From a virus (taxonomy: Duplodnaviria > Caudoviricetes), in IMG/VR virus record IMGVR_UViG_3300030419_007944, positions 1 through 55,831 of that record: 55,831 nucleotides of DNA; one strand, written 5' to 3'. Both the position numbers and the translations under genes were made by a program. Shown piece after piece: positions 22,913 to 41,411 of this stretch (position 1 is the first letter of the stretch; each line of letters starts with the position of its first letter). A model generated the notes under the pieces. That model was not told where the DNA came from and ran no database searches. It worked only from the letters and a program-made list of their open reading frames with translations.

Positions 22913-23112
22913 TCAAGCGAACCCGGCGGGAAGTCCTCGTCCTCATCTTCATTCATCTTAATGATGGGAGGATTCATCACAAAAAGCTGGCTATCCTCGT
23001 TTACTTTAAAATTAAAGCCTTTCAGTGTTGGAACAATATCACTTTGCTCCATCAAGGACTTTTGTAGAGCCATCATGATGGCCCCCAACGCTTCATCAGA
23101 TAATTTTAACAT
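22909..23112 (-). CDS. Hypothetical protein (67 aa)
   Basis: Short ORF overlapping both neighbours in the operon. Confidence 0.7.
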   Translation of the reverse strand: MLKLSDEALGAIMMALQKSLMEQSDIVPTLKGFNFKVNEDSQLFVMNPPIIKMNEDEDEDFPPGSLD

Positions 23113-24641: not shown

Positions 24642-25026
24642 TCTTTTCACTCTCCAATATTCTAGTGGTTGAAAAACCATCAATATAATTAAAAATTTTT
24701 ACTTCCGCCAGATTATTTCCAACCACTTCTTCTATTTTGTAATCTCCACCTTTGACAATTATATCAGGCTTTATTTGTTTTATTAACGAATAAGGAGTTT
24801 TTTCATTAAAAACGATAACTTCGTCAACATATCTACACGATTCCAGCATAAACTTTCTTTCTCTTTGAGAAAAAAATGGTCGAGCTGGACCTTTGTTTTC
24901 TGAGACGCTTCCATCACTATTCAGGCCCACAACAACATGCCCCAAGCTTTTACAATATTGCAGAAGCTTCATGTGGCCAGGATGAAGAATATCAAAGCAG
25001 CCATTTGTAAAGACTTTCTTAAACAA
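24625..25026 (-). CDS. Sugar-1-phosphate nucleotidyltransferase, RfaE/HldE domain II-like (HldC-like)
   Basis: FTNGCFDILHPGH, VGLNSDGSV, KGPARP, KGGDY and GFSTT motifs. Confidence 0.88.
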   Translation of the reverse strand: MFKKVFTNGCFDILHPGHMKLLQYCKSLGHVVVGLNSDGSVSENKGPARPFFSQRERKFMLESCRYVDEVIVFNEKTPYSLIKQIKPDIIVKGGDYKIEEVVGNNLAEVKIFNYIDGFSTTRILESEKNDICV

Positions 25027-25756
25027 CGCTCACCCCACGAGATTGCACAACCCTAGTAGCACACTCATTTGCGAAACGTATAGATTCAGAAATATCTTTA
25101 GTTTGCATAAATTTTGTCACTAATCCAGCAAGAAATGTGTCGCCGGCGCCGGAGACGTCCTTGATCTCCACCCTTGGCACAGGATACAGAATTCCATTAT
25201 GTTTTGCACCATCTTGCCCATATGTAATGATGAATTTCTTTTTTATATCGTCATTCAGAAGATGTTCAGTCTTGTTGTATTCCAATGAGTTAATTTTTAT
25301 ATATGAAATATCAGAACACCAGGCTGGATCTAGCATCTTTTTTGTATCTAGAAAAACCAAATCATTTTCAGAAGAAATATATTTTATATCCTCTTCGGTT
25401 ACATATCCTTTATTATAATCAGATATCACAACAGCATCATAGTTTTTAAAATTTATTTTTGATAACTTGCATCTTTTTATTTTGTTGTCATTCTCATCAA
25501 GCCTCATAAACATATGATTTGTTCTGTGGTCGATAAATCTAGTTTTTCGCACACTACGCCAATTAGGATTGGTGAAGATCTCAGCCTTAATGGCGCCGAT
25601 AGAATTAATATTGTTTTTCACATTCATTGCCATGCCATCATTTTCAACAACATTTATTGGATTAAATACCGGAACAGGTGCCTCTGGACAGAGGCGCTCA
25701 CAAACACCATAATTAAAAACATCTCTACAGCTCTCGCCTACAACTAAAACTTTCAT
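25019..25756 (-). CDS. PfkB-family kinase, RfaE/HldE domain I-like (HldA-like)
   Basis: RLCPEAPVPV, ISDYNKG and DVSGAGDTF motifs. Confidence 0.85.
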   Translation of the reverse strand: MKVLVVGESCRDVFNYGVCERLCPEAPVPVFNPINVVENDGMAMNVKNNINSIGAIKAEIFTNPNWRSVRKTRFIDHRTNHMFMRLDENDNKIKRCKLSKINFKNYDAVVISDYNKGYVTEEDIKYISSENDLVFLDTKKMLDPAWCSDISYIKINSLEYNKTEHLLNDDIKKKFIITYGQDGAKHNGILYPVPRVEIKDVSGAGDTFLAGLVTKFMQTKDISESIRFANECATRVVQSRGVSVV

Positions 25757-25757
25757 C

Positions 25758-26918
25758 TTATCCCTTTACGATACTACAAATAGTATCAATATTCTCCACC
25801 GTTAATTCAGGATAATTCGGCAAAAAGAAGCCACAAGAATGTATTTTATCACTAATATGATCGTGAAATTTACCATATTTGTTATACCAGAAGGGATGGC
25901 GACCAAGATTGCCGGCGCTAAAAATTCTTGTCTCTACACCTGCTTCGACCAGCCTCTCGACAATCTCCCTTCTATGGTCGTTATTCTCTGCCAAGGCACC
26001 GAAAGAAATAGAGACAGGCTTATTCTCTCCCCAGTTCTGAAATTCTACAGTATCTCGAAGACGCTCTGCGTAGGCAACATGGTTCTCAAATCGACGTTGA
26101 GCGACAACTGGCGCCTTTGCTATTTGTCTTATGCCCAAAAACGCCTGCAGGTCTGTTGACCTTAGATTAAACCCAGGCATAAAAAATGTAAAGGGCTTAT
26201 GAAAATCATCTATTTGATACTCTTCCACGAGCTTTGTATAGCTTTGCTCAGCCAAATCCTTCCCCCAGCCATGGCTGCGCAACATTAGCAAGGCATCAAA
26301 TAGCTCCTTGTCGTCTGTATTGACCATCCCGCCCTCGATAGTAGAAAGCTGATGGCCAAAATAAAAAGAAAACGAAGACATGTCCCCAACTGTACCAATT
26401 TTATCTCCATTAGAATATTCAGCGCCCAGAGCAGCGCAAGCATCTTCTAGTAAGCAAAATCCATACTTTTTCTTTAGCTCTAGCAATCTTTCTCTGTAAT
26501 GCGGGACGCCAAGAACTTGGACAAAAATAACAGCATCTGGCCTTTCTTTTTCGCACAGCTGCTCTAGCTGATCCAGATCCATGCCAAATGTATCCGGGTC
26601 GGCGCCGACCATAAACGGCTCAAGACCAAATTGAATCGCTGGTGCAATGGTAGTAACCCACCCAACGGAGGGTACAGCAATCTTTTTGTTTTCTATACGA
26701 CCAGCTGCGATCGCTGCGTAGATCATAAGCAAATTTGCAGAAGAACCAGAATTATTGAAAACAGCATGCTTTGTGCCAATATAGTTTGCCCACTGTTCTT
26801 CGACTTGCCATGTTAACTCGCCTTTCGTAAGCCTCGGATAGCTACGGAGCCAGTCGCAGAGGGCGTCCACATCTTCATTATTAATCGTTTCTTTTGCTAA
26901 CGGGTAATTTATATTCAC
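25758..26918 (-). CDS. PLP/PMP-dependent DegT/DnrJ-fold enzyme, His-type NDP-4-keto-6-deoxyhexose 3-dehydratase (ColD/E1-like)
   Basis: NSGSSANLL, LEDACAALG and SFYFGHQLSTIEGG, with His where aminotransferases have the Schiff-base Lys. GTG start at 26918 follows a GGAGG RBS. Confidence 0.8.
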   Translation of the reverse strand: MNINYPLAKETINNEDVDALCDWLRSYPRLTKGELTWQVEEQWANYIGTKHAVFNNSGSSANLLMIYAAIAAGRIENKKIAVPSVGWVTTIAPAIQFGLEPFMVGADPDTFGMDLDQLEQLCEKERPDAVIFVQVLGVPHYRERLLELKKKYGFCLLEDACAALGAEYSNGDKIGTVGDMSSFSFYFGHQLSTIEGGMVNTDDKELFDALLMLRSHGWGKDLAEQSYTKLVEEYQIDDFHKPFTFFMPGFNLRSTDLQAFLGIRQIAKAPVVAQRRFENHVAYAERLRDTVEFQNWGENKPVSISFGALAENNDHRREIVERLVEAGVETRIFSAGNLGRHPFWYNKYGKFHDHISDKIHSCGFFLPNYPELTVENIDTICSIVKG

Positions 26919-27465
26919 TTTTTCCTCCGAATAAATTAATTTGTTTAAATGAGCTTCCATTTCTGTCTCTCTTAGAAAGGATAGGCTTATCAATAGGCCA
27001 GTCTATTTTGAGATCGGGGTCATCCCAAGCTACAGTTGCCTGCTTTTCAGGTCCGTGGTATTTTTCTGACCATTTATACCAAAAAATGCATTTTTCCGAC
27101 AAACATAAATGACCATTTAAACACCCCGGGGGAACTAGTACTAGTGTACCACTATTTTCAGAAATTTTAAACGTTTCAGTCAAACCATATGTTTTTGAAT
27201 GGCGTCGGGCGTCAGCAACGACCAGTAGCATCTCCCCGTGCAAACACGATATAAGCTTCCAAGTATTGTCATCTCCATGCAGGCCTCGCAAGACATTCCG
27301 TCTAGAAATTGAAATCTTATCCTCCACAAAAGATGGTAGCCAGTCCACATTTCGAAAAATCGTCCAGATCTCTCCCCTTTCGTCCGAAAAAGTATCTAAA
27401 GAAATTTTATATACATCTTCTATTTTAGAATTTTCGATGTGTTTATAGAAATCAAAATCCATCAA
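26881..27465 (-). CDS. rmlC: dTDP-4-dehydrorhamnose 3,5-epimerase family protein
   Basis: FSDERG, VLRGLHGD, VPPGCLNGH and WDDPDLKIDWP...LSKRD motifs. Confidence 0.85.
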   Translation of the reverse strand: MMDFDFYKHIENSKIEDVYKISLDTFSDERGEIWTIFRNVDWLPSFVEDKISISRRNVLRGLHGDDNTWKLISCLHGEMLLVVADARRHSKTYGLTETFKISENSGTLVLVPPGCLNGHLCLSEKCIFWYKWSEKYHGPEKQATVAWDDPDLKIDWPIDKPILSKRDRNGSSFKQINLFGGKSEYKLPVSKRND

Positions 27466-28409
27466 ACCTCAACAAATTCAAACTCGTCGCGACTTCTAGG
27501 GAAATTTTTATTTTTATAATTCTTGGCATCATCTAAAGTTTCCTGAACATTTATATGAAGAGTCTTGCCAAGTCTTGATACATCTCTCTGGGGTAGGTAC
27601 TTATTTCTATATTGTTCATAAACAAAAGATTTACTTTTTTGAAAAATAGACCTTCCATCTTTTATTGCTAAGCCAATTTCCAAAGAGACACGTGACCCGC
27701 CGCCTTGCTTGAGTGTCCTGTGTACGCAAGCATGATCAAAAATATTTATAGCTCCAAAGTGAGCAAAATCTAAAAATTTTAAAGATTTAAAAAATGATTT
27801 TTTATACGCATCATCATAGTCTGTCAATGAACTAAAAAAGTCTGGTGAAGGATCAACCGGTTCGCACAATTCAACTGTAGTGGTGGGATCACCGCCAACT
27901 GGAATAGACAGTATAGAATCACCTAACTGGGAAGCCCACGCATCTGAATGATATTTCTCTGTAGCTAGCAGGCGGCTTCTCATCACTTCCTCACTTCTCC
28001 CAGAGACAATCCTAGGGGTGATGCATTGTGCATGAGAAATATAATTTATCAGCCCAGTGTCAATCAAAATATCGGTTACTATAGCCTGCAACTTGTTGTA
28101 TTCTTTTAAGTTTTCTCTTTTTGGATAAAAAACCCCATTTGGGCTTATATTAGGAAGAGCGAAGATTTCTTGCTCATAGACATTCAAAAAATCAAAGTCG
28201 CACTCATCAAATCGCCAATCAGCTAGAAAAATCTTCTTTCCATAAAAAGAAAGTAATGTCTTGTGTATGTATTCTACAAAAGCTCTTTGCAGTTGGCTAA
28301 GCAGCCTATCGTCAATATTGATATTAAAAAATATTCCACGATCATTAAAGACATTGCAATTTTCTCTTATTAGATTATAGATCTGCTGCCGCTCTTCAAT
28401 AATACCCAT
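27462..28409 (-). CDS. Putative 2-oxoglutarate/Fe(II) dioxygenase-like protein
   Basis: HxD (YHSDAW), a distal His (CVHRT) and RxS (SRVSLE) occur in the expected order. Confidence 0.55.
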   Translation of the reverse strand: MGIIEERQQIYNLIRENCNVFNDRGIFFNINIDDRLLSQLQRAFVEYIHKTLLSFYGKKIFLADWRFDECDFDFLNVYEQEIFALPNISPNGVFYPKRENLKEYNKLQAIVTDILIDTGLINYISHAQCITPRIVSGRSEEVMRSRLLATEKYHSDAWASQLGDSILSIPVGGDPTTTVELCEPVDPSPDFFSSLTDYDDAYKKSFFKSLKFLDFAHFGAINIFDHACVHRTLKQGGGSRVSLEIGLAIKDGRSIFQKSKSFVYEQYRNKYLPQRDVSRLGKTLHINVQETLDDAKNYKNKNFPRSRDEFEFVEV

Positions 28410-28415
28410 CTTGCC

Positions 28416-29363
28416 TCATGGTATGAACTTACATTTCATTTTATCATAATCCAGCTCTTCTTTGGAGAGAAAAAAATATTTATTTATCATACTTTTCAAT
28501 TCTTCAGGAAAAAGAGGAAAGCCATCAGGGCCATAGGCATCTGGATTATGATTCATAATGTCGTTACACTCCTCATATCCCATGCCCACCCTTCGCGCTT
28601 CGGGATCATTAATAAAATCATTCGCGTCGCGGCCACACAATAAATTATTCCACGGATTTCTATGAACGGATGACCAATGAGGCTTACAATTAGACGCACC
28701 ATCGACGCCCTTGAGATGTCTTATTTGTATATCTTTCATTATCACCCACCTCTGATTGACAGCAGCTGCAAGAAAATTAAATGTCGACTCAGAACAATAT
28801 GCAGCAAATACGTCTGGTTCAATTTTATTATTGTAGGCTTTATAAATCTCATTGCTAAAAAGATGTACATGCTGATTTATTGACTTTCCAATTGGTATAA
28901 TATAATCTTCATCTTTTATCTGCACATCTGAAGTTTGATATTTAAATTTTGGATCAAGCACTTGAAGTGCCTCGTCGGTATCACATTGCAAGGCAATGAT
29001 TCCGTTAGGCCCAGATTTGTAGGTCTCGTAGAGTCTTGATAGAATATCTCTTTGATCATCAAAAGTACAGCCAGAGTCGACATAAACATATGTCTCGGCA
29101 TCTCCAAAATGACTGGTAAAGTCTTGCAATGCTTTATTGAAAGTTATATTGACAGTATGAGGCTCAGAATGAAAAGAATAAGATATCTCGTTTCTAAAGG
29201 TTTTATATATTTCCTGCAAGCATTCAGCGCTATTTAGACACGACGACAAAACCACTCGATAATCATCAAAATCTTGATTTAAAAAGCTTTTAATACACTC
29301 TATATACCAAGCTGTATTGTCTCTCTTTATTCCACATGTGTTATACACTACTACAGATTTCAT
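28416..29363 (-). CDS. Putative GT-A fold (GT2-like) glycosyltransferase
   Basis: ECIKSFLNQDFDDYRVV, TFNKAL and YVYVDSG (DxD-like position); cluster context. Confidence 0.55.
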   Translation of the reverse strand: MKSVVVYNTCGIKRDNTAWYIECIKSFLNQDFDDYRVVLSSCLNSAECLQEIYKTFRNEISYSFHSEPHTVNITFNKALQDFTSHFGDAETYVYVDSGCTFDDQRDILSRLYETYKSGPNGIIALQCDTDEALQVLDPKFKYQTSDVQIKDEDYIIPIGKSINQHVHLFSNEIYKAYNNKIEPDVFAAYCSESTFNFLAAAVNQRWVIMKDIQIRHLKGVDGASNCKPHWSSVHRNPWNNLLCGRDANDFINDPEARRVGMGYEECNDIMNHNPDAYGPDGFPLFPEELKSMINKYFFLSKEELDYDKMKCKFIP

Positions 29364-30563
29364 TTATATAAACTCCGGATGTTTGATTTTTGACTTAATC
29401 TTTTCTTGTTTTTCTATAAGATCTTTTTTATTGATCTTATCAAAATTTTGATGAAGCTCCCACATCATCTTATTGCTTTCATGCGGCTTGCAAAGTTCGG
29501 TACAATTCTTGAAACATTCTACTTTATCAATATTATACATTACTTCTTGGCGTTTTTTTATATCATTCCAAATATTTTTAAAAGATCTCTCTCGCAAATT
29601 ACCATAACTATATTGTTTATAGCCTCGATGGTTGGTGCACACATAAACATGAGAGTCGGCGCCGACACAAGGCTGTAATTGAGAGCCTAGGCATCTTTTA
29701 TAATTTCTACCATACAAAGATGGATCTTGTTCTAAATCTGTCAATTTATAGCCATTTATCTGAAATTTGCTTCCTAAGATTTCTTTGGCCTCGTCGAGTA
29801 GGGGCTCCACTTTCTCATTCCAAAAATCAATTTCTCTCTGCACTCCAGACTCGCGCTCGCGGTTGACCACCTCGGGCTTAAATTGGCAATAATCTAAATC
29901 AAAATCTTTAAAAAACTTTGCAAAATCAACAATCTCTTCGTATGTGTCGGGAGTGATGACGAACCCTACACCTATATTTATCTTTTTTCCTTTTCTATTG
30001 TTAACATCGATCAGCTTTTTTAAATTTGTAACCATCTTATCCCAATTATGAGATTTCTTGACTCTTCTAACGCTATTATATGTTGCTTTAGTGCCAGCAT
30101 CAATAGAGAATCTTACCCAAGTCATATTGTCTACCAAAGCGTCGAACATATCCCACTTATCTAGCAAAGTACCATTTGTAAACATACCCATCTTAATTGA
30201 GTGTGAGCCAAGAAATTCTATCGCCTCTTTAAGATGAGGATTGATAGTTGGCTCACCGCCGCCGGTCCAATTTACCGCGCGGACGTCCATGTCGACAAAG
30301 TCTTGGCAAATTCCCATTAAAATCTCTCGCGGCATCACAGAGCGATCAAAGGTCTCCAAAGCTTTTGATTCCGGAAGGTGTATGTAGGAAGAAATACAAA
30401 AATAGCATCCATGATTGCATGCATTGCTTGGGTCAACTTCAACCAAGACAGGGTTGGCATTGCCAGTTTCGAAAAATTCTATAGCGCGATCCACGTTTGC
30501 AATTATCTTCGCTTGTGGATTGAATATAGACGTTCCTTTGTTTAAGATATCATTAATTTTCAT
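29364..30563 (-). CDS. Radical SAM enzyme with SPASM/twitch auxiliary-cluster domain
   Basis: CNHGCYFC, TGGGEP, and C-terminal C...VYVC...YGNL...CFKNCTELC. Confidence 0.9.
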   Translation of the reverse strand: MKINDILNKGTSIFNPQAKIIANVDRAIEFFETGNANPVLVEVDPSNACNHGCYFCISSYIHLPESKALETFDRSVMPREILMGICQDFVDMDVRAVNWTGGGEPTINPHLKEAIEFLGSHSIKMGMFTNGTLLDKWDMFDALVDNMTWVRFSIDAGTKATYNSVRRVKKSHNWDKMVTNLKKLIDVNNRKGKKINIGVGFVITPDTYEEIVDFAKFFKDFDLDYCQFKPEVVNRERESGVQREIDFWNEKVEPLLDEAKEILGSKFQINGYKLTDLEQDPSLYGRNYKRCLGSQLQPCVGADSHVYVCTNHRGYKQYSYGNLRERSFKNIWNDIKKRQEVMYNIDKVECFKNCTELCKPHESNKMMWELHQNFDKINKKDLIEKQEKIKSKIKHPEFI

Positions 30564-31476
30564 TTTTGTCTTCTAGCCATTTTAAGAAATAAGCGGTTGG
30601 ATCCTTGAAGTATTCTCTAACTACATTATCAAAATATTGTTTTGCGGCGTTGGCGCGCCTCTCTATCTCGTCGCGAGGGAGAGTATAAATATATTCAAGC
30701 TGTTGCTTTATTTTTTGTGGTGTCAAATCATTTCCACAAATTCTGAATATAAAGCTAGTATCATAATGATCCTCGCCGACAAGAAAATAATCTTCATCTG
30801 ATATTAAAATTGGAACTCGATTATAATAGCATGTCTCTAAAAGGCGTACACTGTCTATGCCAGAGCCGCGGGGGCACAGCGATAAAGAATTTGAAAGCAT
30901 AGTGTCTATAAAATCTTGCTGTACTTCTGATCCTACTTCCGATGGGCCTGACCAGCTTCTATTAATATGGATATCTTTTTTAAAATCGGAATGGTGCACC
31001 GCGTGCAGCATCATGGCGCGAATTCTATGATTCAGAAATCCCCGGAAGCCAAAGCTTCTTTTATCTGGGAGAGTGTATTCTTCATTTCTGTTGTTAATAA
31101 TCTCAAGCAAAAGATAAGAGAAGGTCGGCCTAGTGAATAAATATTCTATATTTGAATATCTCTTAAGGGGTCCCATGGTGGTTATAATCGACCCATGAAG
31201 CCACGATGGTATGGGCATTCCTCCTTCGCCCTCGATATCGCAAATATGTTTCTTCTCGTTGCCCTTAAAGAAAGAAAAGTCTGACGGTTTGAAATTTCGA
31301 AATTTATCATTTGGAATTTGACCCATATAAAAATAATCAGCTTCGGACGCCGGCGCTAGCTCAAAGTGCTCGTTTAGGCCTTTTTTGCTCATTGGCACAG
31401 TATTAAAGTATATAGCAACATCATCGTGTACATGTTTTAAGGCTTGTGGATAAACATATAATTTTAATCTTTTCAT
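30553..31476 (-). CDS. Exostosin-family (GT47-like) glycosyltransferase
   Basis: LKLYVYP N-terminus and SLCPRGSG...RLLETCYYNRVPILISD. Start moved to ATG 31476, which makes an ATGA overlap with the upstream stop. Confidence 0.75.
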   Translation of the reverse strand: MKRLKLYVYPQALKHVHDDVAIYFNTVPMSKKGLNEHFELAPASEADYFYMGQIPNDKFRNFKPSDFSFFKGNEKKHICDIEGEGGMPIPSWLHGSIITTMGPLKRYSNIEYLFTRPTFSYLLLEIINNRNEEYTLPDKRSFGFRGFLNHRIRAMMLHAVHHSDFKKDIHINRSWSGPSEVGSEVQQDFIDTMLSNSLSLCPRGSGIDSVRLLETCYYNRVPILISDEDYFLVGEDHYDTSFIFRICGNDLTPQKIKQQLEYIYTLPRDEIERRANAAKQYFDNVVREYFKDPTAYFLKWLEDKNEN

Positions 31477-32477
31477 TTTAACGTCTTGGTCGTGGAGGGC
31501 ATGGGAGCAGGTGTGCATATCGGACAGGGTGTCCAGTTTGCGGCCGTGCAATCGCATGTTGAGCGCTCGGGGACGGGCACTTCAAAAGAGGATATTTTGT
31601 TCTTAAGTTTGGGTTTTTTCAGTCGACTGGAAGATTTCGGGGACGTTTTTTTCTTAGACTTGGGGTCTTCCAACGGCATTACCAGACGCTTGTTAAGCCA
31701 AGTGGGCGCTTCATGTGGGCGAGGAAAGGCCACCTCTGGCCGGCCCGGGTTGTCAATTATCTCTTTGAGTTCGCAATAGGAAATATCATATCCCAAGTCG
31801 CTTTTTGCTGTCGCCGCAGAGAGGAGAGAGCAATATATAGCTCGGTCATATGGATCATTTGAAGTATCGCTTGATTGTTTATTATGGATGTGTATGAAAT
31901 CTTCTGTACTTTCACTTATTTTGTCATATCCTTTTACATAAAATAAATAAAAAGATAGATAATGATCAATAAATCTTGACTTAAACAAGGAAGGATAAAT
32001 AACACCAGACAGTTCCCCATCTACAAGGCTTCGGCTTAATATAGGAAATCTAGCGCATGGAGGCCTTGTAGTATTATCAAAATTCATAGGTAAGTTATAC
32101 AAATCAACAACAGAGGCGCCGTGGTGTGGCTTGACAAGGGTGATATGATCTTCTTGGCGGCGGTAATCATGTAGAATTTTTTGAAAATTCTCCTTAAAGC
32201 TCGTAAGGAATGTCATATCATCAGTGATCGGCTGGACAAATGTGCCAGATGATCTCTTGTACATCTCATTAAACCCCTTGACACTCCCCTCCCTTGCCTC
32301 TTCTTTTAGCCAAGTTACTCCGTCTGCTTCAGGGCTTAAAGGTGAATATACGAAAATCTCGTAGCTGATCGGGCCCCAATTAATGGCCTGTATAGAATTA
32401 ATAGTTTTATGACAAAATTTTGAATTTTCTCGCTTGTCATTCATTGTAGAAAGCAAGAAGGAAATATCAACACCCAT
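31473..32477 (-). CDS. Putative GT2-like glycosyltransferase with a low-complexity C-terminal tail
   Basis: DISFLLST, GSVKGFNEMYKRSSG and ITDD motifs. Likely start is ATG 32477. Confidence 0.55.
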   Translation of the reverse strand: MGVDISFLLSTMNDKRENSKFCHKTINSIQAINWGPISYEIFVYSPLSPEADGVTWLKEEAREGSVKGFNEMYKRSSGTFVQPITDDMTFLTSFKENFQKILHDYRRQEDHITLVKPHHGASVVDLYNLPMNFDNTTRPPCARFPILSRSLVDGELSGVIYPSLFKSRFIDHYLSFYLFYVKGYDKISESTEDFIHIHNKQSSDTSNDPYDRAIYCSLLSAATAKSDLGYDISYCELKEIIDNPGRPEVAFPRPHEAPTWLNKRLVMPLEDPKSKKKTSPKSSSRLKKPKLKNKISSFEVPVPERSTCDCTAANWTPCPICTPAPMPSTTKTLK

Positions 32478-32481
32478 ATCC

Positions 32482-34350
32482 TCACTCCATTGATGAGCCT
32501 TCTTTATCAAAGATGCTGGGCATCGGTGGGTTCTTTGAAATCTCCATTGGCTCAACTATCATATTTTCGTAAAATTCTTCTCTTGGGAGATAGGGGTACA
32601 TATCCTCCACCGGAGTTGACCAGCCAACAATTTTTGGCTCATATGTGTGATATTCATGGCAATTCACATCGCAAATCAAAGGCCCGTCAAACTCTAAGAA
32701 CTCTCTTATCTTAGTCCTCACCTGTTCATAACTGTCGGCGCCTGTGATAGTCATTGTCGGTACATTGTATGCATCTGCAATAGCTACAAAATCTGGAGGA
32801 GAATAGCCTTTGGGGCCGCAGGCTTCGCTTCGGCCTTGAAAATTTACCTCTTGAAAGGCCTTGGTAATGCCATAAATATGGTTATTTAGAATAATAGTCT
32901 TTAGTTTGATATTATAATTTAATAAAGTTTGCAGCTCCTGAATGTTCATATTGAATCCTCCGTCGCCTATCACACAAACAACATTCTGATCTTCATTGGC
33001 TGCGAACCATCCACCAAGGGCGCCGGCAAAAGAAAAGCCCATGGGCGAGTTGCCATTATTTGTGTAATATCGTTGCCCCGTCTTGGTCTCGAAGGCATGG
33101 TTGAGCACAACGATATTCCCCCCACAATCTCCCACAAGAATATCATTAGATTTCATCTCTTCGGATAAAATTCTAGTAAAGGCATAGGGATGAAGATCGC
33201 CGTTTTCTTCAAACATTTCAGTTGTCACTGGATCGTACTTTTCTTTCCACTCTGTCACTTTGCTCATCCAATTGGAAAAATCAGGAAAATAATTCGAATC
33301 ATATGAGTTAACATAATCTAAGCGATCGATAAGTCTTTCTATAAAAAGCCTTGCATCTGAATGTATGCATTCATCAAAAGGAAGCTGTTGCCATTTTTTA
33401 ACTAAATTAGCCGCATCAATATCAACCATGTATTTTTTAGCCTCGCGGGCAAAAGTAGATGGTTCACCGCCCGTAATTCTTCCGGAAATACGACTACCAA
33501 TAGCTAATATAAGATCTGAATTCTGTATACCAAAGTTCCGGCCTGCGCCGCCATAAGTTCCAATGCGACCACCATAGTATTCATAGTCTGAACAAATAAT
33601 ATCTAGCGCGTTCCAAGTAGGGAAGCAAGGTATTTTTAACTTTCTTCCCAGCTCTAACATCGCCTCATCAGCATCAGATAGCTTAACCCCTGCGCCCACC
33701 ATTAAGCAAGGCCTTTTTGAATTTTTTAAATCAACTAAAAATTGATCAATCTGAGAATCGATTCTCTCAAGATTGAAAGCTAGCTTGCTTTGTTCTGCAT
33801 CGAAAGAGCGAAGATTGTCAACTTCTACTTCAGTCTTTGCCACGTCAATAGGCAAATCTAATAGTACCGGGCCAGGTCGGCCAGATGTCGCGATATGTAT
33901 GGCCTTTTCTAGCTCAAAGCGAATATCTTCTGGATTTTCAACTAACTTTGCATATTTTGTTATCGGCTCGACAATTCCAACGATATCCGTTTCTTGAAAG
34001 CCTATCTGTCTTACTGATTCATCCGGTCTCATATATTGAGTTTTGATTTGCCCAGTAATGAATACACACGGAACAGAATCATAAAAACAATTTCCTATAG
34101 GGGTCACGAAGTTCATTCCTCCGGGGCCACTAGTCGCAATAGCTACGCCAAATTTTCCAGATACCTTGGCGTATCCTTCAGCTGCAAAGCCGCCGGCTTG
34201 TTCATGCATTACAGCAACATATCTAGTTTTATCATTTCTAGTAAATGCATCGATGAGATGACCATTCGCTGCACCATATACAACAAATACTTCCTTTATT
34301 CCCTCGTCCGCGATATGATCGATTACAAAATCGGCGACCTTCTTTTTCAT
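32482..34350 (-). CDS. Thiamine diphosphate-dependent enzyme, acetolactate synthase-like (YerE-like sugar branching candidate)
   Basis: HEQAGGFAAEGY, TSGPG, GRPGPVLLDLP and the GDGGFNMNIQEL...NN ThDP motif. Confidence 0.9.
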   Translation of the reverse strand: MKKKVADFVIDHIADEGIKEVFVVYGAANGHLIDAFTRNDKTRYVAVMHEQAGGFAAEGYAKVSGKFGVAIATSGPGGMNFVTPIGNCFYDSVPCVFITGQIKTQYMRPDESVRQIGFQETDIVGIVEPITKYAKLVENPEDIRFELEKAIHIATSGRPGPVLLDLPIDVAKTEVEVDNLRSFDAEQSKLAFNLERIDSQIDQFLVDLKNSKRPCLMVGAGVKLSDADEAMLELGRKLKIPCFPTWNALDIICSDYEYYGGRIGTYGGAGRNFGIQNSDLILAIGSRISGRITGGEPSTFAREAKKYMVDIDAANLVKKWQQLPFDECIHSDARLFIERLIDRLDYVNSYDSNYFPDFSNWMSKVTEWKEKYDPVTTEMFEENGDLHPYAFTRILSEEMKSNDILVGDCGGNIVVLNHAFETKTGQRYYTNNGNSPMGFSFAGALGGWFAANEDQNVVCVIGDGGFNMNIQELQTLLNYNIKLKTIILNNHIYGITKAFQEVNFQGRSEACGPKGYSPPDFVAIADAYNVPTMTITGADSYEQVRTKIREFLEFDGPLICDVNCHEYHTYEPKIVGWSTPVEDMYPYLPREEFYENMIVEPMEISKNPPMPSIFDKEGSSME

Positions 34351-34412
34351 TATTTTATCCTATTGTACACTATGCATAGAAAAAAGTTCTTTCTTGAATT
34401 CTTCTAGTTCAT

Positions 34413-35378
34413 CTATTTTTTTTTTGCATCGGAATCTGAAGAGCGATTCTTAATAGTTACAGTCTCTGGTGTAGCACTATGATTGGTGGGAAATCCTTGA
34501 TCTGTCTCATAAATGACCTCGTCGTGTTTCCAGTTTCCACCGCCTAACAGCTTTTCTAGCTCCTCTTCTTTGATAGCATAGAAGTTTTCTTCGGCTGGAA
34601 ATTCGCCAGATCTCACTTCTTCCGCATATCTTGTCAGAGCAGCTTGCATAATCTGGCCGGCCTCACAATATCTCTTTACAAACTTAGACTTAAACTCCCA
34701 GAACAAGCCCATCAAATCATGAAAAATAACTAACTGACCATCGACTTTATCTCCAGCGCCGATGCCATAAACTGGAATTGATAGTTCATTGGAAATGATC
34801 TCAGCAGACTCTCTCGGCATACCCTCTAGAAGCAAGAATGTACATCCGGCCTCTTGTAAGTCGAGTGCTTGTTGAAGAATGATCTCAGCCTGCTTAGCTG
34901 TCTTGCCTTGAACCCTATACCCCCCTAGCTTTGCTCTAGTGTGTGGCGTAAGGCCCAGATGGCTCATAACCATAATGCCTGAATCGGCGATGGCTTTTAT
35001 TCTCTCTGTCATTGCTCCTTCGACCTTTACACAATCCATGCCAGCCCGGACAAACCTACCGGCATTCGCGACTGCCTCTTCGTTAGAGACTTGATAAGAC
35101 ATGTAAGGCATGTCGCCAATAAGGAACGACTTTTTGGCGCCCTTCGCGACTGCCTCACAATGTCTTATCATATCATCCATAGTTACGGGAATTGTTGTTT
35201 TATATCCCAGAGTCGTCATGCCCAGAGAATCTCCAACAAGGATACAGTCTACGCCGGCTCCATCAGCAATTCGTGCTTGTGGATAGTCATATGCTGTAGT
35301 CAACACAGTCTTTGTATTTTCTCTTTTTTGTCTTCTTAGTTTAAGAATCGTTACTTTATTTATATCGTTTGCTGGCAT
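34413..35378 (-). CDS. panB: 3-methyl-2-oxobutanoate hydroxymethyltransferase family protein
   Basis: TAYDY, LVGDSLG, GDMPYMSY, VKVEG, HLGLTP, GGYRVQG and GIGAG..DGQ motifs. Confidence 0.92.
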   Translation of the reverse strand: MPANDINKVTILKLRRQKRENTKTVLTTAYDYPQARIADGAGVDCILVGDSLGMTTLGYKTTIPVTMDDMIRHCEAVAKGAKKSFLIGDMPYMSYQVSNEEAVANAGRFVRAGMDCVKVEGAMTERIKAIADSGIMVMSHLGLTPHTRAKLGGYRVQGKTAKQAEIILQQALDLQEAGCTFLLLEGMPRESAEIISNELSIPVYGIGAGDKVDGQLVIFHDLMGLFWEFKSKFVKRYCEAGQIMQAALTRYAEEVRSGEFPAEENFYAIKEEELEKLLGGGNWKHDEVIYETDQGFPTNHSATPETVTIKNRSSDSDAKKK

Positions 35379-35381
35379 TTT

Positions 35382-36911
35382 TTAATCTCCTAAAATGCGT
35401 CTTTTGAGTTTGATTGTAGCAGTATCGACAACGTTTTGTTTAGCCTTTTCTCCAAATTTTCTTTCAAGTAAGTTCAAATATTCTGGATTAGTGTGGTACT
35501 TTGTCCACGCGTCATCTCTAAACTTGAGTATTTCCGCTGCCGTTAAATTGTCTGTAGACAAATTCTGTGTATAATATGAATGCTGGCTATATCCTGAATA
35601 TCGGTCTGGTAAGACCAGGCCAGCTTTCTTTGCCTGAATGTGCAATGGACTTCCGGGATATGCCATTGCACAATAGAAATTTGCCATCTCTGTATTAGCT
35701 TCAAGCGCAAAATCTAATGTAAATTGAAGTGACTCGGCTGTGTCCATTGGCAAGCCAAAAATATAATTTGCAGCAACGTTGATTCCTGCTGCGCGCATAT
35801 CATTGATTATATCAATAATTTTTACTTCTTTAAAGTTGTCTTTGTGCACTTCTTTGCGCAAAGTTTGATTTGGATTCTCGATACCCAAACCCAGCCAGTT
35901 GACGCCTGCTTCTTTGAGGATATCTAGATATTCTGGCTTGCACGTATCAATTCTAGAATACGCCCATATGTTGAAATCATAACCTCTTTCAATAATCAGC
36001 TTGCATATCTCTTCAAAGTGCCTCGGATTTAAAACAAAAAGCTCGTCTGCTATCTTTACATTTTTCACTCCCATTTTCGCAATTTCATCAAATTGTTGAA
36101 TTATGAATTCTGGTGGCCACCATCGCCACATATTGCTACTATCACTAGCTATTCCGGGAGAGGAATCAGTTCTGTTGATAATATTTATCATACAGAAAGA
36201 ACAACGATAAGGACAGCCCAAGCTCGTGTATATAGAGGCAAAAGGCTCTTTCTCAGAATTATTCGACCAAGAGTGCCAGCCGGCTGTTCTATATTTCTTT
36301 ATATCTGGCAGGAGATCCCACGCCATTCCGGGGAGATCATGAACCAAAAGCGCCCTGGGGACAATAGGTCGTGGTTTATTTAAAATTATTCCTTCTTGCG
36401 CTTTGAAGCCTAGACCATCGACCTTTTTAAGTTCGCTGTCTTCATCAAACCGGTTAAGTTTAAGAAGACTGCTTATAGTATATACGCCCTCGTTCTGGCA
36501 AATCATATCTATTGAGGGCTCTTCTAAAACCTCTCTAGGCAAGGCAGCGACGTGCCCACCAACAAATAATATTTTTGTATTTGGACTTAACTTTTTGACT
36601 TCGTCTGCAGTGGCGACGGCGCCTTCCATGTTTTGTGAAGATGCACTAGGCTGCTGACCGTATACGACAAAACATACAATTCTTGCTTTTGCATCAACTA
36701 TTTCAGAGGCAGCTGATAGATAGTCTAGTCTTTCTGCTTCGCAGTCCAAGATTCTCGCCCCAAAGCCTCGAATGCGACAATGATTTGCCAACATGGCAGC
36801 CCAAATAGGAGGCTCAATAGCTGAATGCTTAGTGCTTAATCCCTGGTATATTGCCTTGGAGGCATTAGGGTGAACAAATAATATATCTAACTGTCTCACA
36901 ATGCACCTCAA
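35382..36911 (-). CDS. Cobalamin-binding radical SAM enzyme (class B methyltransferase-like)
   Basis: N-terminal B12-binding-type domain (EPPIWAAMLA, VGGHVAALP) and GCPYRCSFC. The true start may be GTG at 36899. Confidence 0.88.
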   Translation of the reverse strand: MRCIVRQLDILFVHPNASKAIYQGLSTKHSAIEPPIWAAMLANHCRIRGFGARILDCEAERLDYLSAASEIVDAKARIVCFVVYGQQPSASSQNMEGAVATADEVKKLSPNTKILFVGGHVAALPREVLEEPSIDMICQNEGVYTISSLLKLNRFDEDSELKKVDGLGFKAQEGIILNKPRPIVPRALLVHDLPGMAWDLLPDIKKYRTAGWHSWSNNSEKEPFASIYTSLGCPYRCSFCMINIINRTDSSPGIASDSSNMWRWWPPEFIIQQFDEIAKMGVKNVKIADELFVLNPRHFEEICKLIIERGYDFNIWAYSRIDTCKPEYLDILKEAGVNWLGLGIENPNQTLRKEVHKDNFKEVKIIDIINDMRAAGINVAANYIFGLPMDTAESLQFTLDFALEANTEMANFYCAMAYPGSPLHIQAKKAGLVLPDRYSGYSQHSYYTQNLSTDNLTAAEILKFRDDAWTKYHTNPEYLNLLERKFGEKAKQNVVDTATIKLKRRILGD

Positions 36912-37834
36912 TAATTAGCGTACCAAGGGCTCTCTATGATAGAATACGCCTTGACAAGCTGTATTATACCATCATCCAAATCAAAATTACAATTAAATCC
37001 TTTGTTGTAGAATTTTTCACTGCTAACAATATAATCTCTAGTATCTGGGTCGCTAGTAAATTCGGCCTTTATTATCTCTAGAGGCATGTGTTCTGAAATC
37101 TTTTGTGCTAGCTGAAGTTTGTTCATATTAATAGCATCATTGCCGACATTATATGTCTCGTTTTTGCACTCGTCCCAGTTATCAATAACATGCTTGTACG
37201 CTCGGCAAACATCTTGTATATGAACGTAATTTCTCATAAACTCACATTCATATAGCACAATCACTCTTTCGCGAAGAGCTTTAAGGACAAAATTATTTAC
37301 TAATAGATCGCTCCTCATTCTAGAGCTGGGACCAAAGACCGTAGCCAATCTAAATGTTACGTGATTTTCTACATTTTTATAAGCTTTTTCTGCATCTACC
37401 TTAGTAACTCCATAGAGTGTCAGGGGGTTTAGAGGAGACTCCTCGGTGCACACGCCGTCACTCTTTGATCCATATCCTGAATTTGTGCAAGGATAGATGA
37501 CCATTTGATCATTAGATTTATTATCGGCTATCCACTTGTTAACATCAAAATTAATCTCTTTTGCATCTCGTGGGTTATCGCGACATAGCGGAAAGCCAAC
37601 TAGAGCAGCCAAAGGTATAATCACATCAGCTTTTTTAACGTGTTTTGCCAATAGGCTTATATCTCTTACATCTCCGTTCACAAAACTAAAATTCGAATTA
37701 TTTGTATATCTCAATAAAGATGATGGATCATACATAAGATTGTCATATGCAACGACATCATGGCCATCATCTAGTAAATGTTGCACAAGCTCGGATCCAA
37801 TATAGCCTGCACCACCGGTAATTAAAACATTCAT
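36908..37834 (-). CDS. NAD-dependent epimerase/dehydratase or 4-keto reductase (extended SDR)
   Basis: TGGAGYIGS, YGVTK and FRLATVFG motifs. Confidence 0.9.
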   Translation of the reverse strand: MNVLITGGAGYIGSELVQHLLDDGHDVVAYDNLMYDPSSLLRYTNNSNFSFVNGDVRDISLLAKHVKKADVIIPLAALVGFPLCRDNPRDAKEINFDVNKWIADNKSNDQMVIYPCTNSGYGSKSDGVCTEESPLNPLTLYGVTKVDAEKAYKNVENHVTFRLATVFGPSSRMRSDLLVNNFVLKALRERVIVLYECEFMRNYVHIQDVCRAYKHVIDNWDECKNETYNVGNDAINMNKLQLAQKISEHMPLEIIKAEFTSDPDTRDYIVSSEKFYNKGFNCNFDLDDGIIQLVKAYSIIESPWYANY

Positions 37835-38124
37835 TATCTTTCAATCCTCCCTAAAATCCAATCTCTAAGCATTAACCAATCACATGCTTTAGCCCACAGT
37901 GGATTGGAGAACGCGGCCGGAGTGTTTTTTTCAAAGAAAAAATGCCCAGACCATGCAAATGGATACACCACAAAAGGCACTGCCAGCAATAAAAGCCATG
38001 TCTTAGACAATATCGCATAAAGCAATACTAACAAGGTAGTAGCCTGTCCTAAGACATGAAGTCTGCGACACATTTTATTTTGATGTAGCGCTAGATAGTG
38101 TTGATAGTATTGTTGAAAATTCAT
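37834..38124 (-). CDS. DUF962 (Mpo1-like) membrane protein
   Basis: YLALHQNKMCRRLHVLG...FAWSGHFFFEKNTPAAF. Start taken as ATG 38124. Confidence 0.8.
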   Translation of the reverse strand: MNFQQYYQHYLALHQNKMCRRLHVLGQATTLLVLLYAILSKTWLLLLAVPFVVYPFAWSGHFFFEKNTPAAFSNPLWAKACDWLMLRDWILGRIER

Positions 38125-38522
38125 CACCAACTCACCTCCCAATCTTCAAATTCAGCCGCTAAACAATCGATTTTATAATCTTTTCGGCCGCCATTTAATT
38201 CTTGAATTTTATTTTTAGCTGTATTTCTAATTCCATTTATTCCATGTGTAAGCTCAAGATTATTACCATCTTTAATGCCTTTTCGATAGTTTGATTCATT
38301 ATGCCAAATATGTAAGTTCATTTGAGACAAGACCACAATAGCTCTTATGGTTTCAGCATCAATTGTATCACACGAGTCTAAAATCAACTGGATATCGTGA
38401 ACAATGTGTTCTATTTCTTCTGCATATGCCTTCTTGTGTTCCGGAATAAACACCTCTTTTAGTTGCACAATTGATAGACGATCTATTAGCTCAGATAAAG
38501 TTGGTAAATATTTTCTTTCCAT
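38124..38522 (-). CDS. Hypothetical helical protein (possibly DUF4254-like)
   Basis: TLSELIDRLSIVQLK and NLHIWHNE motifs. Confidence 0.6.
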   Translation of the reverse strand: MERKYLPTLSELIDRLSIVQLKEVFIPEHKKAYAEEIEHIVHDIQLILDSCDTIDAETIRAIVVLSQMNLHIWHNESNYRKGIKDGNNLELTHGINGIRNTAKNKIQELNGGRKDYKIDCLAAEFEDWEVSW

Positions 38523-38523
38523 T

Positions 38524-40155
38524 TTATACCCTGTTTACGAATTGAGAAAAATATGGTTTAAATTTGTTAAAATTTTCTCCAAATAAATGATGATATCTAA
38601 AAAATATCTTCGCCTCTTCGACGCGCTGCTCAGGATTGAAGTTTTGTTGAGAACGCCCACCCAGCAAGTAGAGGCCTACGGTCTTGTTTACCTTCTTGAA
38701 TCTAGAGCCGGTGTTGACAGCCCTTAGCCACATCTCCCAATCATCTGCGTAGTTGCAGTTCTCTTCATCGAACAAGCCGCAGATTTCGTGAATATCTGCC
38801 CTCCATAGTGGCATTGGGCCAGGAAGGCACTTTACCATATTTTCTTTTGAAAATTGTAGTGTTGAATGTTCAAATAGTGTGCCATCAGATGTATTTTCAT
38901 CAAACGTCTCATTATCAATTTTTGTTTGCAAGACATCTCCATAAACCAAGTCAATCCCAACACTGGTGCTGATTTCTTTATATAATTCTTCTAGACAATC
39001 ATTTTTTCTTCGATCGTCAATAAAGCCAAAAGTCAGATACTCACCAGCAGATTCCTTAATGCCTATATTGATGCAGTCAGTAGGAGGAAGCTTTTCTTCC
39101 AGACGAATGTATTTAATATTATTAAACTTTTTTATATATTTTTCAATAATTTGCTTCTCTTTTCCAGGAGATGCAGCATCGACGAAGATCAATTCACACA
39201 TATCGAAAATAGTCTGACTGGTTATATCTTTCAAAAATCCTTCGAGGTGTTTTTCACCCTGATGAAAAGTGCTTAAAATGCTTATCTCTATACTCTTATT
39301 GGAAGATGGTTGATTGATTAAGCCGACAACTATATCTGCTATCTCCTTCCTCTTCTCAGCAAGATAGTCAATTAACTGCTCGCCTTTCATATGAAACCAA
39401 TCTTCAAAAGAGGCGCCTACAAGATTATTTGTAAGAACTGACATTCCCATCATTCTTGCTTCAACGACAACCCTTGAGAGAGTCTCCGTAGTCTTTGGGA
39501 AAAATATAAATTTTTTATTTGATCCTAGTTTTCTTAAAAAATCTTCATACTTGTCTCCGGAGACCAGATCATACGAAATTCCTTTGATCTCACAATATTT
39601 TATTGCGTCTGCTGTGTTTTTGTGGCCAATAGAAGACTGTAAAATAGAACAAGAATCCTTCTTCTCTAGCTTGCTAAGCTCCCTCAGCAGTTCCAAGGAC
39701 TCCAAAGACCATAGGTTCCCTGAGACGTTGATTATATTTCGTAAGTCTAGATTCTTTTCCATTATCTCTTTATGAAAGGATGATTGGACCAAAATCTTTT
39801 GTGCGTTTTTATAAAAAGAAAAATTTCTTAATTGTGACTGGGGCGCCCTATATTCATCATAATCTGCCGGATTTCTTGTAAATATATATTTGTGATCGTG
39901 TTCATAAATTATATATCTTCCATTCTTTATAAGCCATCTTTTTGCGCCCTGTGATAAATTACAAAAATTTGAAACTATGAAAAAACATTTTTGATTATCA
40001 GATAAAATCTTCTGTGTGATTGCGTGAGATCGCATTTTAGATATTTCAAACCCCGATTTTTCTAAAATCTTTAAGAGTTCGTTATCGTTTAATTCGCCGC
40101 CACCCAACACATCATCAACAAAAAAATCAGATATGTAGAATACTTTTTTACTCAT
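38524..40155 (-). CDS. Two-domain glycosyltransferase (GT-B-like N-terminus, GT2 C-terminus)
   Basis: GGGELND and ETLSRVVVEARMMG in the N-domain; ELIFVDAAS, GEYLTFGFIDD and DDWEMWLR in the C-domain. Confidence 0.8.
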   Translation of the reverse strand: MSKKVFYISDFFVDDVLGGGELNDNELLKILEKSGFEISKMRSHAITQKILSDNQKCFFIVSNFCNLSQGAKRWLIKNGRYIIYEHDHKYIFTRNPADYDEYRAPQSQLRNFSFYKNAQKILVQSSFHKEIMEKNLDLRNIINVSGNLWSLESLELLRELSKLEKKDSCSILQSSIGHKNTADAIKYCEIKGISYDLVSGDKYEDFLRKLGSNKKFIFFPKTTETLSRVVVEARMMGMSVLTNNLVGASFEDWFHMKGEQLIDYLAEKRKEIADIVVGLINQPSSNKSIEISILSTFHQGEKHLEGFLKDITSQTIFDMCELIFVDAASPGKEKQIIEKYIKKFNNIKYIRLEEKLPPTDCINIGIKESAGEYLTFGFIDDRRKNDCLEELYKEISTSVGIDLVYGDVLQTKIDNETFDENTSDGTLFEHSTLQFSKENMVKCLPGPMPLWRADIHEICGLFDEENCNYADDWEMWLRAVNTGSRFKKVNKTVGLYLLGGRSQQNFNPEQRVEEAKIFFRYHHLFGENFNKFKPYFSQFVNRV

Positions 40156-41410: not shown

Positions 41411-41411
41411 T

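Follow-up and report, generated by a model that had tools for sequence, protein, structure and literature searches.

A tailed-phage gene cluster appears to make and transfer an acyl-branched deoxysugar by means of a PanB-type hydroxymethyltransferase and a neighbouring thiamine diphosphate (ThDP)-dependent enzyme, a reading to which we assign a probability of about 0.6. The cluster (23106-42662) lies in the IMG/VR virus record IMGVR_UViG_3300030419_007944, which was analysed over its whole length of 55,831 bases and is referred to here as the window; nearly every gene in it is on the minus strand. Clusters with this pairing occur across a family of large uncultured phages. On this reading, the viral PanB probably serves the synthesis of an unusual branched sugar and not that of vitamin B5. 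An earlier note on this DNA had proposed that PanB and the ThDP enzyme jointly make a C-branched sugar in a phage. That core idea is now backed by the conserved linkage of the two genes, the PanB tree, the YerE/JanthE-like scores of the ThDP enzyme, and a His-type active site in all 39 DegT-family proteins of these loci.

PanB and its ThDP-dependent neighbour

A first viral scan with the window PanB as query returned 35 loci (PanB 72-91% identity), and a ThDP enzyme adjoined PanB in every one of them. A wider scan, using an alignment of diverse PanBs, returned 168 viral stretches; the figures given here cover the best 80 of these, all of which belong to the same clade, are at least 67% identical to the window PanB, and include recurring contigs from the first scan. 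Among these best 80 of 168, the ThDP gene was directly adjacent to PanB in 79, in either gene order; the remaining contig breaks off 331 bases away from PanB, where it still encodes 110 residues of a ThDP enzyme. DegT-family genes accompanied the pair in 30 of the 35 first-scan loci (the five without one being short) and lay within 6 kb in 63 of the 80. As a control, 41 cellular PanB loci were inspected. In contrast to the viral loci, none of the 37 with PanB at 56% identity or less had a ThDP enzyme within 7 kb, so that the co-occurrence of panB and a ThDP gene, which the earlier note had named as a check, holds in 35/35 and 79/80 viral loci and 0/37 distant cellular ones. The other four cellular loci (72-80% identity) are marine single-cell or metagenome-assembled genome (MAG) contigs with a GC content of 0.30; three of them have a ThDP neighbour, in one case cut by the contig end. 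A related module was found on a Planctomycetia MAG contig (L049), with a short-chain dehydrogenase/reductase (SDR) resembling Protein Data Bank (PDB) entry 6vo6, the ThDP enzyme, PanB and a radical S-adenosylmethionine (SAM) enzyme with a B12-binding-type domain at 46, 55, 56 and 42% identity, respectively.

Pfam and NCBIfam scans covered window open reading frames (ORFs) of at least 90 residues, with short reverse-strand overlap ORFs and 44394-44711 set aside. As the earlier note had observed, panC, panD, panE, ilvC, ilvD and ilvH, the last encoding the small subunit of acetohydroxyacid synthase (AHAS), were all missing among these ORFs. Four related virus records were searched (one of 186,103 bases, rated 100% complete, and three partial ones), and all four lacked panC and any ilvD or ilvC above cut-off.

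The window PanB scores 286 bits against the TIGR00222 equivalog cut-off of 207.55 and 323 bits against 272 for NF001452. The columns corresponding to E. coli D45, S46, D84, K112, E114, H136 and E181 are invariant in 39 of 39 ThDP-linked and 43 of 43 unlinked PanBs, and only three columns are specific to the ThDP-linked clade. In the E. coli enzyme these seven positions have metal-binding, catalytic and carboxylate-binding roles. Because they are all kept, PanB would be expected to act on a 2-oxo acid in the orthodox manner. The phage-clade PanBs also carry a C-terminal extension of ~50 residues (residues ~270-321 of the window PanB), which neither E. coli PanB nor the unlinked cellular PanBs have. 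In a tree of 81 PanBs, whose root is arbitrary and whose 'housekeeping' sample is whatever the locus scan returned, the ThDP-linked rows form one group of 39 (SH-like approximate likelihood ratio test, SH-aLRT, 93), comprising 37 linked PanBs, L062 (whose contig stops within the ThDP gene) and L064. Compared with housekeeping PanB, the phage protein thus shares the equivalog-level score and the active site, but differs in its separate tree group, its C-terminal extension, the lack of a panC partner, and its YerE-like neighbour in sugar clusters. A second, housekeeping PanB was not found in five of five incomplete genomes with a ThDP-linked PanB, each having only the linked copy.

PanB is ~90% identical between loci whose ThDP enzymes are only ~33% identical and whose sugar genes differ, which argues for a common small-molecule substrate. 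We read this as a common small-molecule product that would be passed to carboligases that diverged along with the acceptor sugars. The same conservation, together with the orthodox active site, disfavours another option raised in the earlier note, namely that PanB acts directly on the keto-sugar.

In Sporomusa, Desulfosporosinus and related Bacillota, two divergent panB paralogues lie a few hundred bases apart, with more copies ~20 kb away; none of these loci (L073-L076, L083, L084, L086, L096) has a ThDP neighbour.

The PanB-linked ThDP enzymes fall into three lineages that are ~33-37% identical to one another: type 1, found in the window and encoded downstream of PanB, and types 2a and 2b, encoded upstream of it. 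The top PDB match of all three is 8rph (330, 433 and 316 bits, compared with 242, 224 and 248 bits for the best AHAS); the best AHAS match of the window enzyme is a plant enzyme. The second-ranked match is 5ahk, which we take to be PpYerE. Two sources identify 8rph as JanthE, a YerE-like carboligase that accepts ketones (PMC12188165; PMC12247030). The best NCBIfam matches of the window enzyme are acetolactate synthases, and against the biosynthetic model TIGR00118 (cut-off 538.35) it reached 383.5 bits, with 364, 394 and 319 bits for the other lineages, all below the cut-off. The GDG(X)~25NN motif and the Glu of the HE pair are present in four of four representatives. In the ThDP tree, eight of nine reference rows, including E. 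coli IlvI, lie in a starred clade without any PanB-linked enzyme; the ninth, L115, is set off by a very long branch, and the ORF taken there may be the wrong one. Other ThDP-family paralogues in cellular genomes that also encode a type-1 homologue show 27-34% identity to the window enzyme, the closer ones of those sampled (putative AHAS) ~29-34%.

The phage enzyme accordingly resembles biosynthetic AHAS (IlvB/IlvI/IlvG) in its three-domain fold, ThDP motif and catalytic Glu, but differs in its score below the TIGR00118 cut-off, the lack of a small subunit and its position outside the IlvI clade. We propose that it is a YerE/JanthE-like carboligase and the sugar-branching enzyme of the cluster. 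The earlier note had named placement of PanB and the ThDP enzyme in housekeeping clades as evidence against its idea; instead, the ThDP-linked PanBs group apart from the unlinked ones, and the ThDP enzymes stand outside the IlvI clade and score best against JanthE.

Acceptor sugar and proposed route

The link between PanB and sugar genes is likewise conserved. In all 39 DegT-family proteins of these loci, His replaces the catalytic Lys, as expected of pyridoxal phosphate (PLP)-type 3-dehydratases acting on 4-keto sugars. The window protein scores 186 bits against ColD (2gms) and 124 bits against E1 (3bcx), and the His of its FYFGHQ motif falls on the ColD His188 column, which is fixed by the H188N and H188K variant entries. 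The [2Fe-2S] motif and the E3 reductase partner belong to the E1 subtype only; ColD needs neither. The type-2a loci are different: the DegT protein of L004 scores 474 bits with the RfbH (E1) model, above its equivalog cut-off of 423, and in these loci an RfbH-like protein accompanies an SDR resembling deoxythymidine diphosphate-glucose-4,6-dehydratase, which by homology is the classical route to a 3,6-dideoxy-4-keto hexose. A clear 4,6-dehydratase was not found in the window.

The window acceptor is probably a 3-deoxy-4-keto heptose rather than a yersiniose-type cytidine diphosphate (CDP)-hexose. Its 4-keto group is proposed to be made by the 6vo6-like SDR, whose orthologues in type-1 loci are 71-80% identical; a scan with the window SDR returned only three MAG loci and not the Campylobacter jejuni orthologue. 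In L012, L016 and L018, the type-1 module is likewise accompanied by genes for a kinase, a nucleotidyltransferase, a phosphatase and a cupin. In published work, Cj1427 and a PLP-dependent C3-dehydratase together give guanosine diphosphate (GDP)-3-deoxy-4-keto-heptose in vitro (PMC10680097), and the capsular heptose toolkit of C. jejuni includes a C4-dehydrogenase, a C3-dehydratase, C3/C5 epimerases and C4 reductases (PMC10680097, PMC10440746). Because a 6vo6-like SDR (314 bits), HldE-like heptose activation genes, a ColD-like 3-dehydratase and an RmlC-like epimerase occur together, the phage cluster appears to reproduce this toolkit. Unlike in C. jejuni, however, activation is of the HldE type (adenosine diphosphate (ADP)-beta-heptose) rather than of the HddA/HddC type (GDP-alpha), GmhA is missing, and the phage route would gain a branching step by PanB and the ThDP enzyme that has no counterpart in the C. 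jejuni pathways. Of the acceptor originally suggested, the 3-deoxy-4-keto core is thus upheld by the His-type enzymes, whereas the 6vo6-like SDR, the ColD-like enzyme and the HldE-like genes speak against the yersiniose-type CDP-hexose.

The glycan island of the sister phage at L004:15046-20018 contains a fusion of a cytidine monophosphate-sugar-type cytidylyltransferase with a cupin, a classical SDR, a 3-dehydroquinate-synthase-like enzyme and a class III aminotransferase, and may belong to a distinct pathway for a cyclitol or an aminosugar.

From homology and gene linkage, the following route can be drawn up. Enzymes of the HldE/GmhB type (kinase, phosphatase and nucleotidyltransferase) would yield a nucleoside diphosphate (NDP)-heptose, the 6vo6-like SDR would oxidise its C4, and the ColD-like His-type enzyme would strip the 3-hydroxyl to give NDP-3-deoxy-4-keto-heptose, which RmlC may epimerise. 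In parallel, PanB would use methylene-tetrahydrofolate to hydroxymethylate a host 2-oxo acid. The likeliest substrate would be 3-methyl-2-oxobutanoate, giving ketopantoate (4-hydroxy-3,3-dimethyl-2-oxobutanoate), a 4-hydroxy-2-oxo acid, and a less substituted analogue is possible. The ThDP enzyme would decarboxylate the PanB product and add the resulting acyl-anion equivalent to the C4 ketone, creating a tertiary alcohol with a hydroxy-acyl branch, whose ketone an SDR would then reduce. The two radical SAM enzymes and a possible 2-oxoglutarate (2OG) oxygenase would tailor the sugar, and six glycosyltransferases would build the glycan on an acceptor, whether the virion, the host envelope or another.

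This scheme has a close published precedent. In the biosynthesis of erwiniose, caryophyllose and gastriose, an aldolase supplies a gamma-hydroxy-2-oxo acid, a YerE-like enzyme (ErwE, MMAR_2332 or MyGE) attaches it to a ketone, and the product then goes to a reductase (Steitz et al. 2022, PMC9306805). The published acceptor is CDP-4-keto-3,6-dideoxyglucose, and ErwE accepts 4-hydroxy-2-oxobutanoate and rejects pyruvate (PMC9306805). The YerE-type systems comprise YerE/YerF for yersiniose, the ErwI/J aldolase with ErwE and ErwF for erwiniose, MMAR_2331/2332 for caryophyllose, and MygI/E/F for gastriose (PMC9306805, PMC12247030). Because PanB makes the same class of acid as the aldolase, the phage cluster can be regarded as a variant of this acyl-branched scheme. 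The two share a three-domain ThDP carboligase, a His-type 3-dehydratase, a neighbouring enzyme capable of making a gamma-hydroxy-2-oxo acid, and SDRs and glycosyltransferases in one cluster. They differ in the donor maker, which in the phage is PanB (methylene-tetrahydrofolate dependent, of the isocitrate lyase/phosphoenolpyruvate mutase superfamily) and not a class II pyruvate aldolase; in the carrier, a phage and not a bacterium; in the addition of two radical SAM enzymes; and in the acceptor route, which in the window is heptose-like (6vo6-like plus ColD-like) and not CDP-glucose/E1/E3. Indeed, the cluster scans revealed no aldolase family, and PanB occupies the position beside the carboligase. 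Candidates for a YerF-like reductase are the two SDRs, one resembling a C4-dehydrogenase and the other having no close characterised relative. No paper tying panB to branched sugars was found; PMC12247030 credits Krug et al. 2024 with more than 200 YerE-like clusters, and the tables of that study lie outside this comparison.

Competing readings and significance

Several points weigh against the acyl-branched reading. Every role in it rests on homology and gene linkage. PanB is wholly orthodox, lying above the equivalog cut-off with only three clade-specific columns, so sequence alone cannot tell it from an enzyme that makes ketopantoate for pantothenate. The linkage is seen only in the best 80 of 168 viral PanB stretches, which form one clade. 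The backbone of the ThDP tree lacks resolution, and a single YerE-like clade is therefore not shown. The C3 of ketopantoate is quaternary, and such hindered donors are unusual for ThDP carboligases. The heptose part of the route presumes that 6vo6 is C. jejuni Cj1427, a GDP-heptose C4-dehydrogenase. The nucleotide carrier, moreover, is inconsistent: the HldE type suggests ADP, but ColD and Cj1427 act on GDP-sugars. Finally, one locus (L064:6983-9253) has a close PanB (72% identity) with no ThDP neighbour, and an ATP-grasp ligase gene comes after it; the PanB product is therefore open to other uses, for example as an acyl substituent.

The computed results leave the order of steps unfixed, and PanB chemistry in general needs just an enolisable carbon beside a metal-chelating keto group. 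In an unlikely alternative, already raised in the earlier note, the ThDP enzyme would add a pyruvate-derived acetyl branch and PanB would afterwards hydroxymethylate the branch or the sugar, or feed a separate tailoring step. YerE itself does use pyruvate, but for ErwE, which refuses it, an aldolase acting after branching was rejected (PMC9306805). The PanB residues are also against such an order: those that we take to bind the carboxylate and the metal are invariant in 39 of 39 sequences. Likewise, a PanB that stays ~90% identical while sugars and ThDP lineages vary is more in keeping with a free 2-oxo acid as substrate than with a variety of NDP-sugars.

It is quite unlikely that ketopantoate or pantoate serves as a substituent other than a C-branch, such as an N- or O-acyl group, with the ThDP enzyme making an independent branch from another donor. 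L064, with its 72%-identical PanB followed by an ATP-grasp ligase in a glycan cluster, offers the model for this arrangement, and may itself direct a pantoyl-type acyl decoration. It is, however, one locus set against adjacency in 79 of the best 80 of 168 and in 35 of 35. Family scans found no ligase or acyltransferase in the window cluster, which, with a His-type dehydratase as its DegT protein, offers no evident amine acceptor either. The L064 cluster further encodes a carbamoyltransferase, an SxtJ-like protein, a GDSL hydrolase, a formyltransferase and glycosyltransferases.

That the pair consists of ordinary auxiliary metabolic genes, boosting host pantothenate, coenzyme A (CoA) and branched-chain amino acids and standing in a sugar cluster by chance, is very unlikely: PanB passes the TIGR00222 cut-off with all active-site residues kept, the ThDP enzyme has acetolactate synthases as its best NCBIfam matches, and a marine virome study took a viral 'pantoate transferase' as a pantothenate booster (PMC8940887), but the adjacency in 79/80 (best 80 of 168) and 35/35 viral against 0/37 distant cellular loci, the ThDP enzyme's best score against JanthE, its shortfall from the AHAS cut-off and its position outside the IlvI clade, the missing AHAS small subunit in the window and missing ilvC, ilvD and panC in both the window and its complete relative, and the setting amid NDP-sugar genes and His-type 3-dehydratases all speak against it.

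With the acyl-branched reading preferred, a full structure can be suggested only tentatively. The product would be an undescribed 3-deoxy heptose (in sister phages, a 3,6-dideoxy hexose) with a five-carbon, gem-dimethyl hydroxy-acyl branch at C4, derived from ketopantoate by the PanB/YerE-like pair and mounted by six phage glycosyltransferases on the phage or host surface. To our knowledge, a sugar with such a quaternary-carbon branch has not been described so far. If the reading is true, the logic of donor maker, YerE-like carboligase and reductase extends to PanB as the donor maker, and the viral 'pantoate transferase' may for the most part serve glycan tailoring and not vitamin B5 synthesis. 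In the virome study, which concerns one marine oxygen-minimum zone, this was the most abundant vitamin-related viral auxiliary gene and was read as raising host pantothenate and CoA (PMC8940887). Because 79 of 80 PanB loci (best 80 of 168) put panB beside a proposed sugar-branching enzyme in glycan clusters, this common viral gene invites rereading. Phages would then carry very elaborate nucleotide-sugar chemistry, here with ~20 genes, two radical SAM enzymes and six glycosyltransferases. The shuffling of gene sets around a conserved PanB suggests strong selection on the phage-made glycan, and the three carboligase lineages, divergent as they are, could serve as biocatalysts that turn hindered donors into tertiary alcohols.

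Cluster composition and genome setting

The functional cluster spans ~23106-42662 and contains ~20 genes, all on the minus strand and back to back (Table 1). The genes listed in the earlier note (SDR, B12 radical SAM, PanB, ThDP, SPASM, RmlC and DegT) are all present on one strand; its limits of 25758..37834 proved too narrow, as the cluster runs past both ends. Downstream (23106-25756) it continues with a PfkB kinase, an HldE-domain-II nucleotidyltransferase, a haloacid dehalogenase (HAD) phosphatase, a cupin and a second SDR, and upstream (37834-42662) with an Mpo1-like gene, a small conserved ORF, and one GT2 and two GT4 glycosyltransferase genes.

Table 1. Predicted genes of the proposed branched-sugar cluster, with the matches on which each assignment is based (GT, glycosyltransferase; PMP, pyridoxamine phosphate; TM, template-modelling score; pLDDT, predicted local distance difference test).
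Feature	Position	Strand	Evidence
Extended SDR, NDP-sugar epimerase/reductase type	23106..23972	-	PF01370 145 bits; heptose_epim 84 bits, below cut-off
Small cupin	23972..24331	-	Cupin_2 34 bits
HAD-IIIA-type phosphatase, candidate GmhB-like heptose bisphosphate phosphatase	24309..24683	-	TIGR01689 38 bits, TIGR01662 20 bits, both below cut-off
HldE-domain-II-like nucleotidyltransferase (heptose 1-phosphate adenylyltransferase)	24625..25026	-	TIGR02199 144 bits (cut-off 181.5); PF01467 74 bits
PfkB-family kinase, HldE-domain-I-like (heptose 7-phosphate kinase)	25019..25756	-	TIGR02198 101 bits, below cut-off; PF00294 58 bits
ColD-like PMP/PLP-dependent NDP-4-keto-sugar 3-dehydratase (DegT family)	25758..26993	-	ColD 2gms 186 bits
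RmlC-like 3,5- (or 5-) epimerase of 4-keto sugars	26881..27465	-	PF00908 136 bits; TIGR01221 115 bits (cut-off 155.75)
Possible PhyH-like 2OG/Fe(II) oxygenase	27462..28409	-	Atlas PhyH-bearing clusters, feature score 0.97, TM 0.71
GT-A fold glycosyltransferase	28416..29363	-	AlphaFold2 pLDDT 84.8; Foldseek TarP/SpsA/TarS E 3e-9, TM ~0.5
Radical SAM + SPASM enzyme	29364..30563	-	PF04055 75 bits, PF13186 23 bits
GT-B fold, GT47/exostosin-like glycosyltransferase	30553..31557	-	AlphaFold2 pLDDT 82.3; Foldseek EXT1/EXT2 E 1e-10, TM 0.57-0.59
GT2-like (GT-A) glycosyltransferase	31473..32555	-	Atlas structure search, GT2 families TM 0.55-0.62
YerE/JanthE-like three-domain ThDP carboligase	32482..34350	-	Three TPP domains; best PDB match JanthE 8rph
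PanB, 2-oxo acid hydroxymethyltransferase	34413..35378	-	PF02548 335 bits; TIGR00222 286 bits
Radical SAM with B12-binding-type domain	35382..36911	-	PF02310 51 bits, PF04055 72 bits
6vo6-like SDR	36908..37834	-	PDB 6vo6 314 bits, residues 2-308
Mpo1-like (DUF962) small protein	37834..38142	-	PF06127 105 bits; orthologues 62-71% identity in type-1 loci
Small conserved ORF	38124..38522	-	Orthologues 75-89% identity in nine loci; sub-threshold DUF7164 only
GT2 glycosyltransferase, ~290-residue uncharacterised N-terminal region	38524..40155	-	PF00535 44.5 bits, residues 293-409
GT4 glycosyltransferase	40148..41410	-	PF00534 35.6 bits
GT4 glycosyltransferase	41412..42662	-	PF13692 45.8 bits, PF00534 44.5 bits

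The second SDR has UDP-glucose 4-epimerases as its best PDB matches (~82 bits) and no close characterised relative; it is a candidate ketoreductase for the branch or for C4. Orthologues of the cupin (65-86% identity) occur in L007, L008, L012, L016, L018 and L038, and it may act as a sugar-phosphate isomerase replacing GmhA. Two start codons probably need shifting: that of the dehydratase to the ATG at 26960 (internal Met, residue 12), and that of the GT2-like gene to the ATG at 32477 (Met at residue 27, where the Atlas record begins). Wzx, Wzy, an initiating transferase and a transporter were not seen among the scanned window ORFs.

The radical SAM enzyme with the B12-binding-type domain co-occurs with the type-1 ThDP enzyme. 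All 25 of its NCBIfam matches are far below their cut-offs (the best, HpnJ, at 139 against 578 bits), and its best PDB match is the diol dehydratase AprD4 (6fd2, 53.5 bits), with TokK at 25 bits. It could be a methylase or an AprD4-like dehydratase; the B12-dependent methylation suggested previously is unsupported, AprD4 being the closest solved relative. The SPASM enzyme had no NCBIfam match near a cut-off and no PDB sequence match.

Four ORFs (27462-28409, 28416-29363, 30553-31557 and 31473-32555) gave no Pfam match above threshold, and lenient thresholds yielded nothing usable; a weak RXYLT1_C match was recorded for 30553..31557. Fold predictions now point to three glycosyltransferases of GT-A, GT47-like GT-B and GT2-like type, in keeping with the three GT-like genes of the earlier note, whose order needs a slight correction, the SPASM gene being preceded by two of them and followed by the third. 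The 2OG-Fe(II)-like protein of that list is only weakly held, through Atlas PhyH-like clusters and the HSD...H...RVS pattern in the sequence of 27462-28409, and its assignment as a PhyH-like 2OG/Fe(II) oxygenase is a lead only. The idea that two 315-residue ORFs are paralogues was rejected on comparison.

The window is assigned to a tailed phage because it contains baseplate wedge genes of the gp25 and gp6 types (family scans), a 3362-residue protein and a PIN-PhoH protein. The 3362-residue ORF (5886-15974, minus strand), which has no Pfam match, lies immediately upstream of the gp25-like baseplate gene, and a 1315-residue ORF (17349-21296) has neither a Pfam nor a PHROG match; these two giant proteins probably belong to the baseplate or the fibres. 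CheckV rated the 55.8-kb record 14% complete, implying ~400 kb, whereas the closest relative (G010; PanB 91% and ThDP 85% identical) is a 186,103-base record rated 100% complete.

A megablast search of the 12-kb region against 50,697 GenBank phage records gave no match. In protein searches of GenBank phages, all PanB matches were at 45% identity or less, and no deposited phage among them had a PanB-ThDP pair. The best of these PanBs belongs to Microcystis phage MaAM05, where panB adjoins panC and suf genes, an ordinary context. AHAS-like matches in GenBank phages were all at 30% identity or less and came mostly from records resembling bacterial DNA.

A syntenic cluster on a 'Prochlorococcus' single-cell contig (L038) was considered as a cellular host copy and rejected. 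That 130,604-base contig (L038/L102/L103) carries gp32, a DnaB-like helicase, a ribonucleotide reductase, a split DNA polymerase A and SbcCD-like genes; with these phage genes on it, the contig is a phage and the cluster there is not a host island. It offers at most a weak hint of Prochlorococcus as host, and other contigs with a close PanB are filed under Pelagibacter and Marinimicrobia.

Outside the cluster, 43745-44473 (minus strand) had only sub-threshold matches to zincin metallopeptidases (ATLF, E 0.003; peptidase M90; YgjP-like) and probably encodes a small metallopeptidase-like protein. The sole sizeable plus-strand gene of the window (46905-47759) encodes a trypsin-like peptidase and is adjoined by genes for a SpoU-type RNA methyltransferase and a staphylococcal-nuclease-like protein (47768-48193 and 48402-48725, both minus strand).

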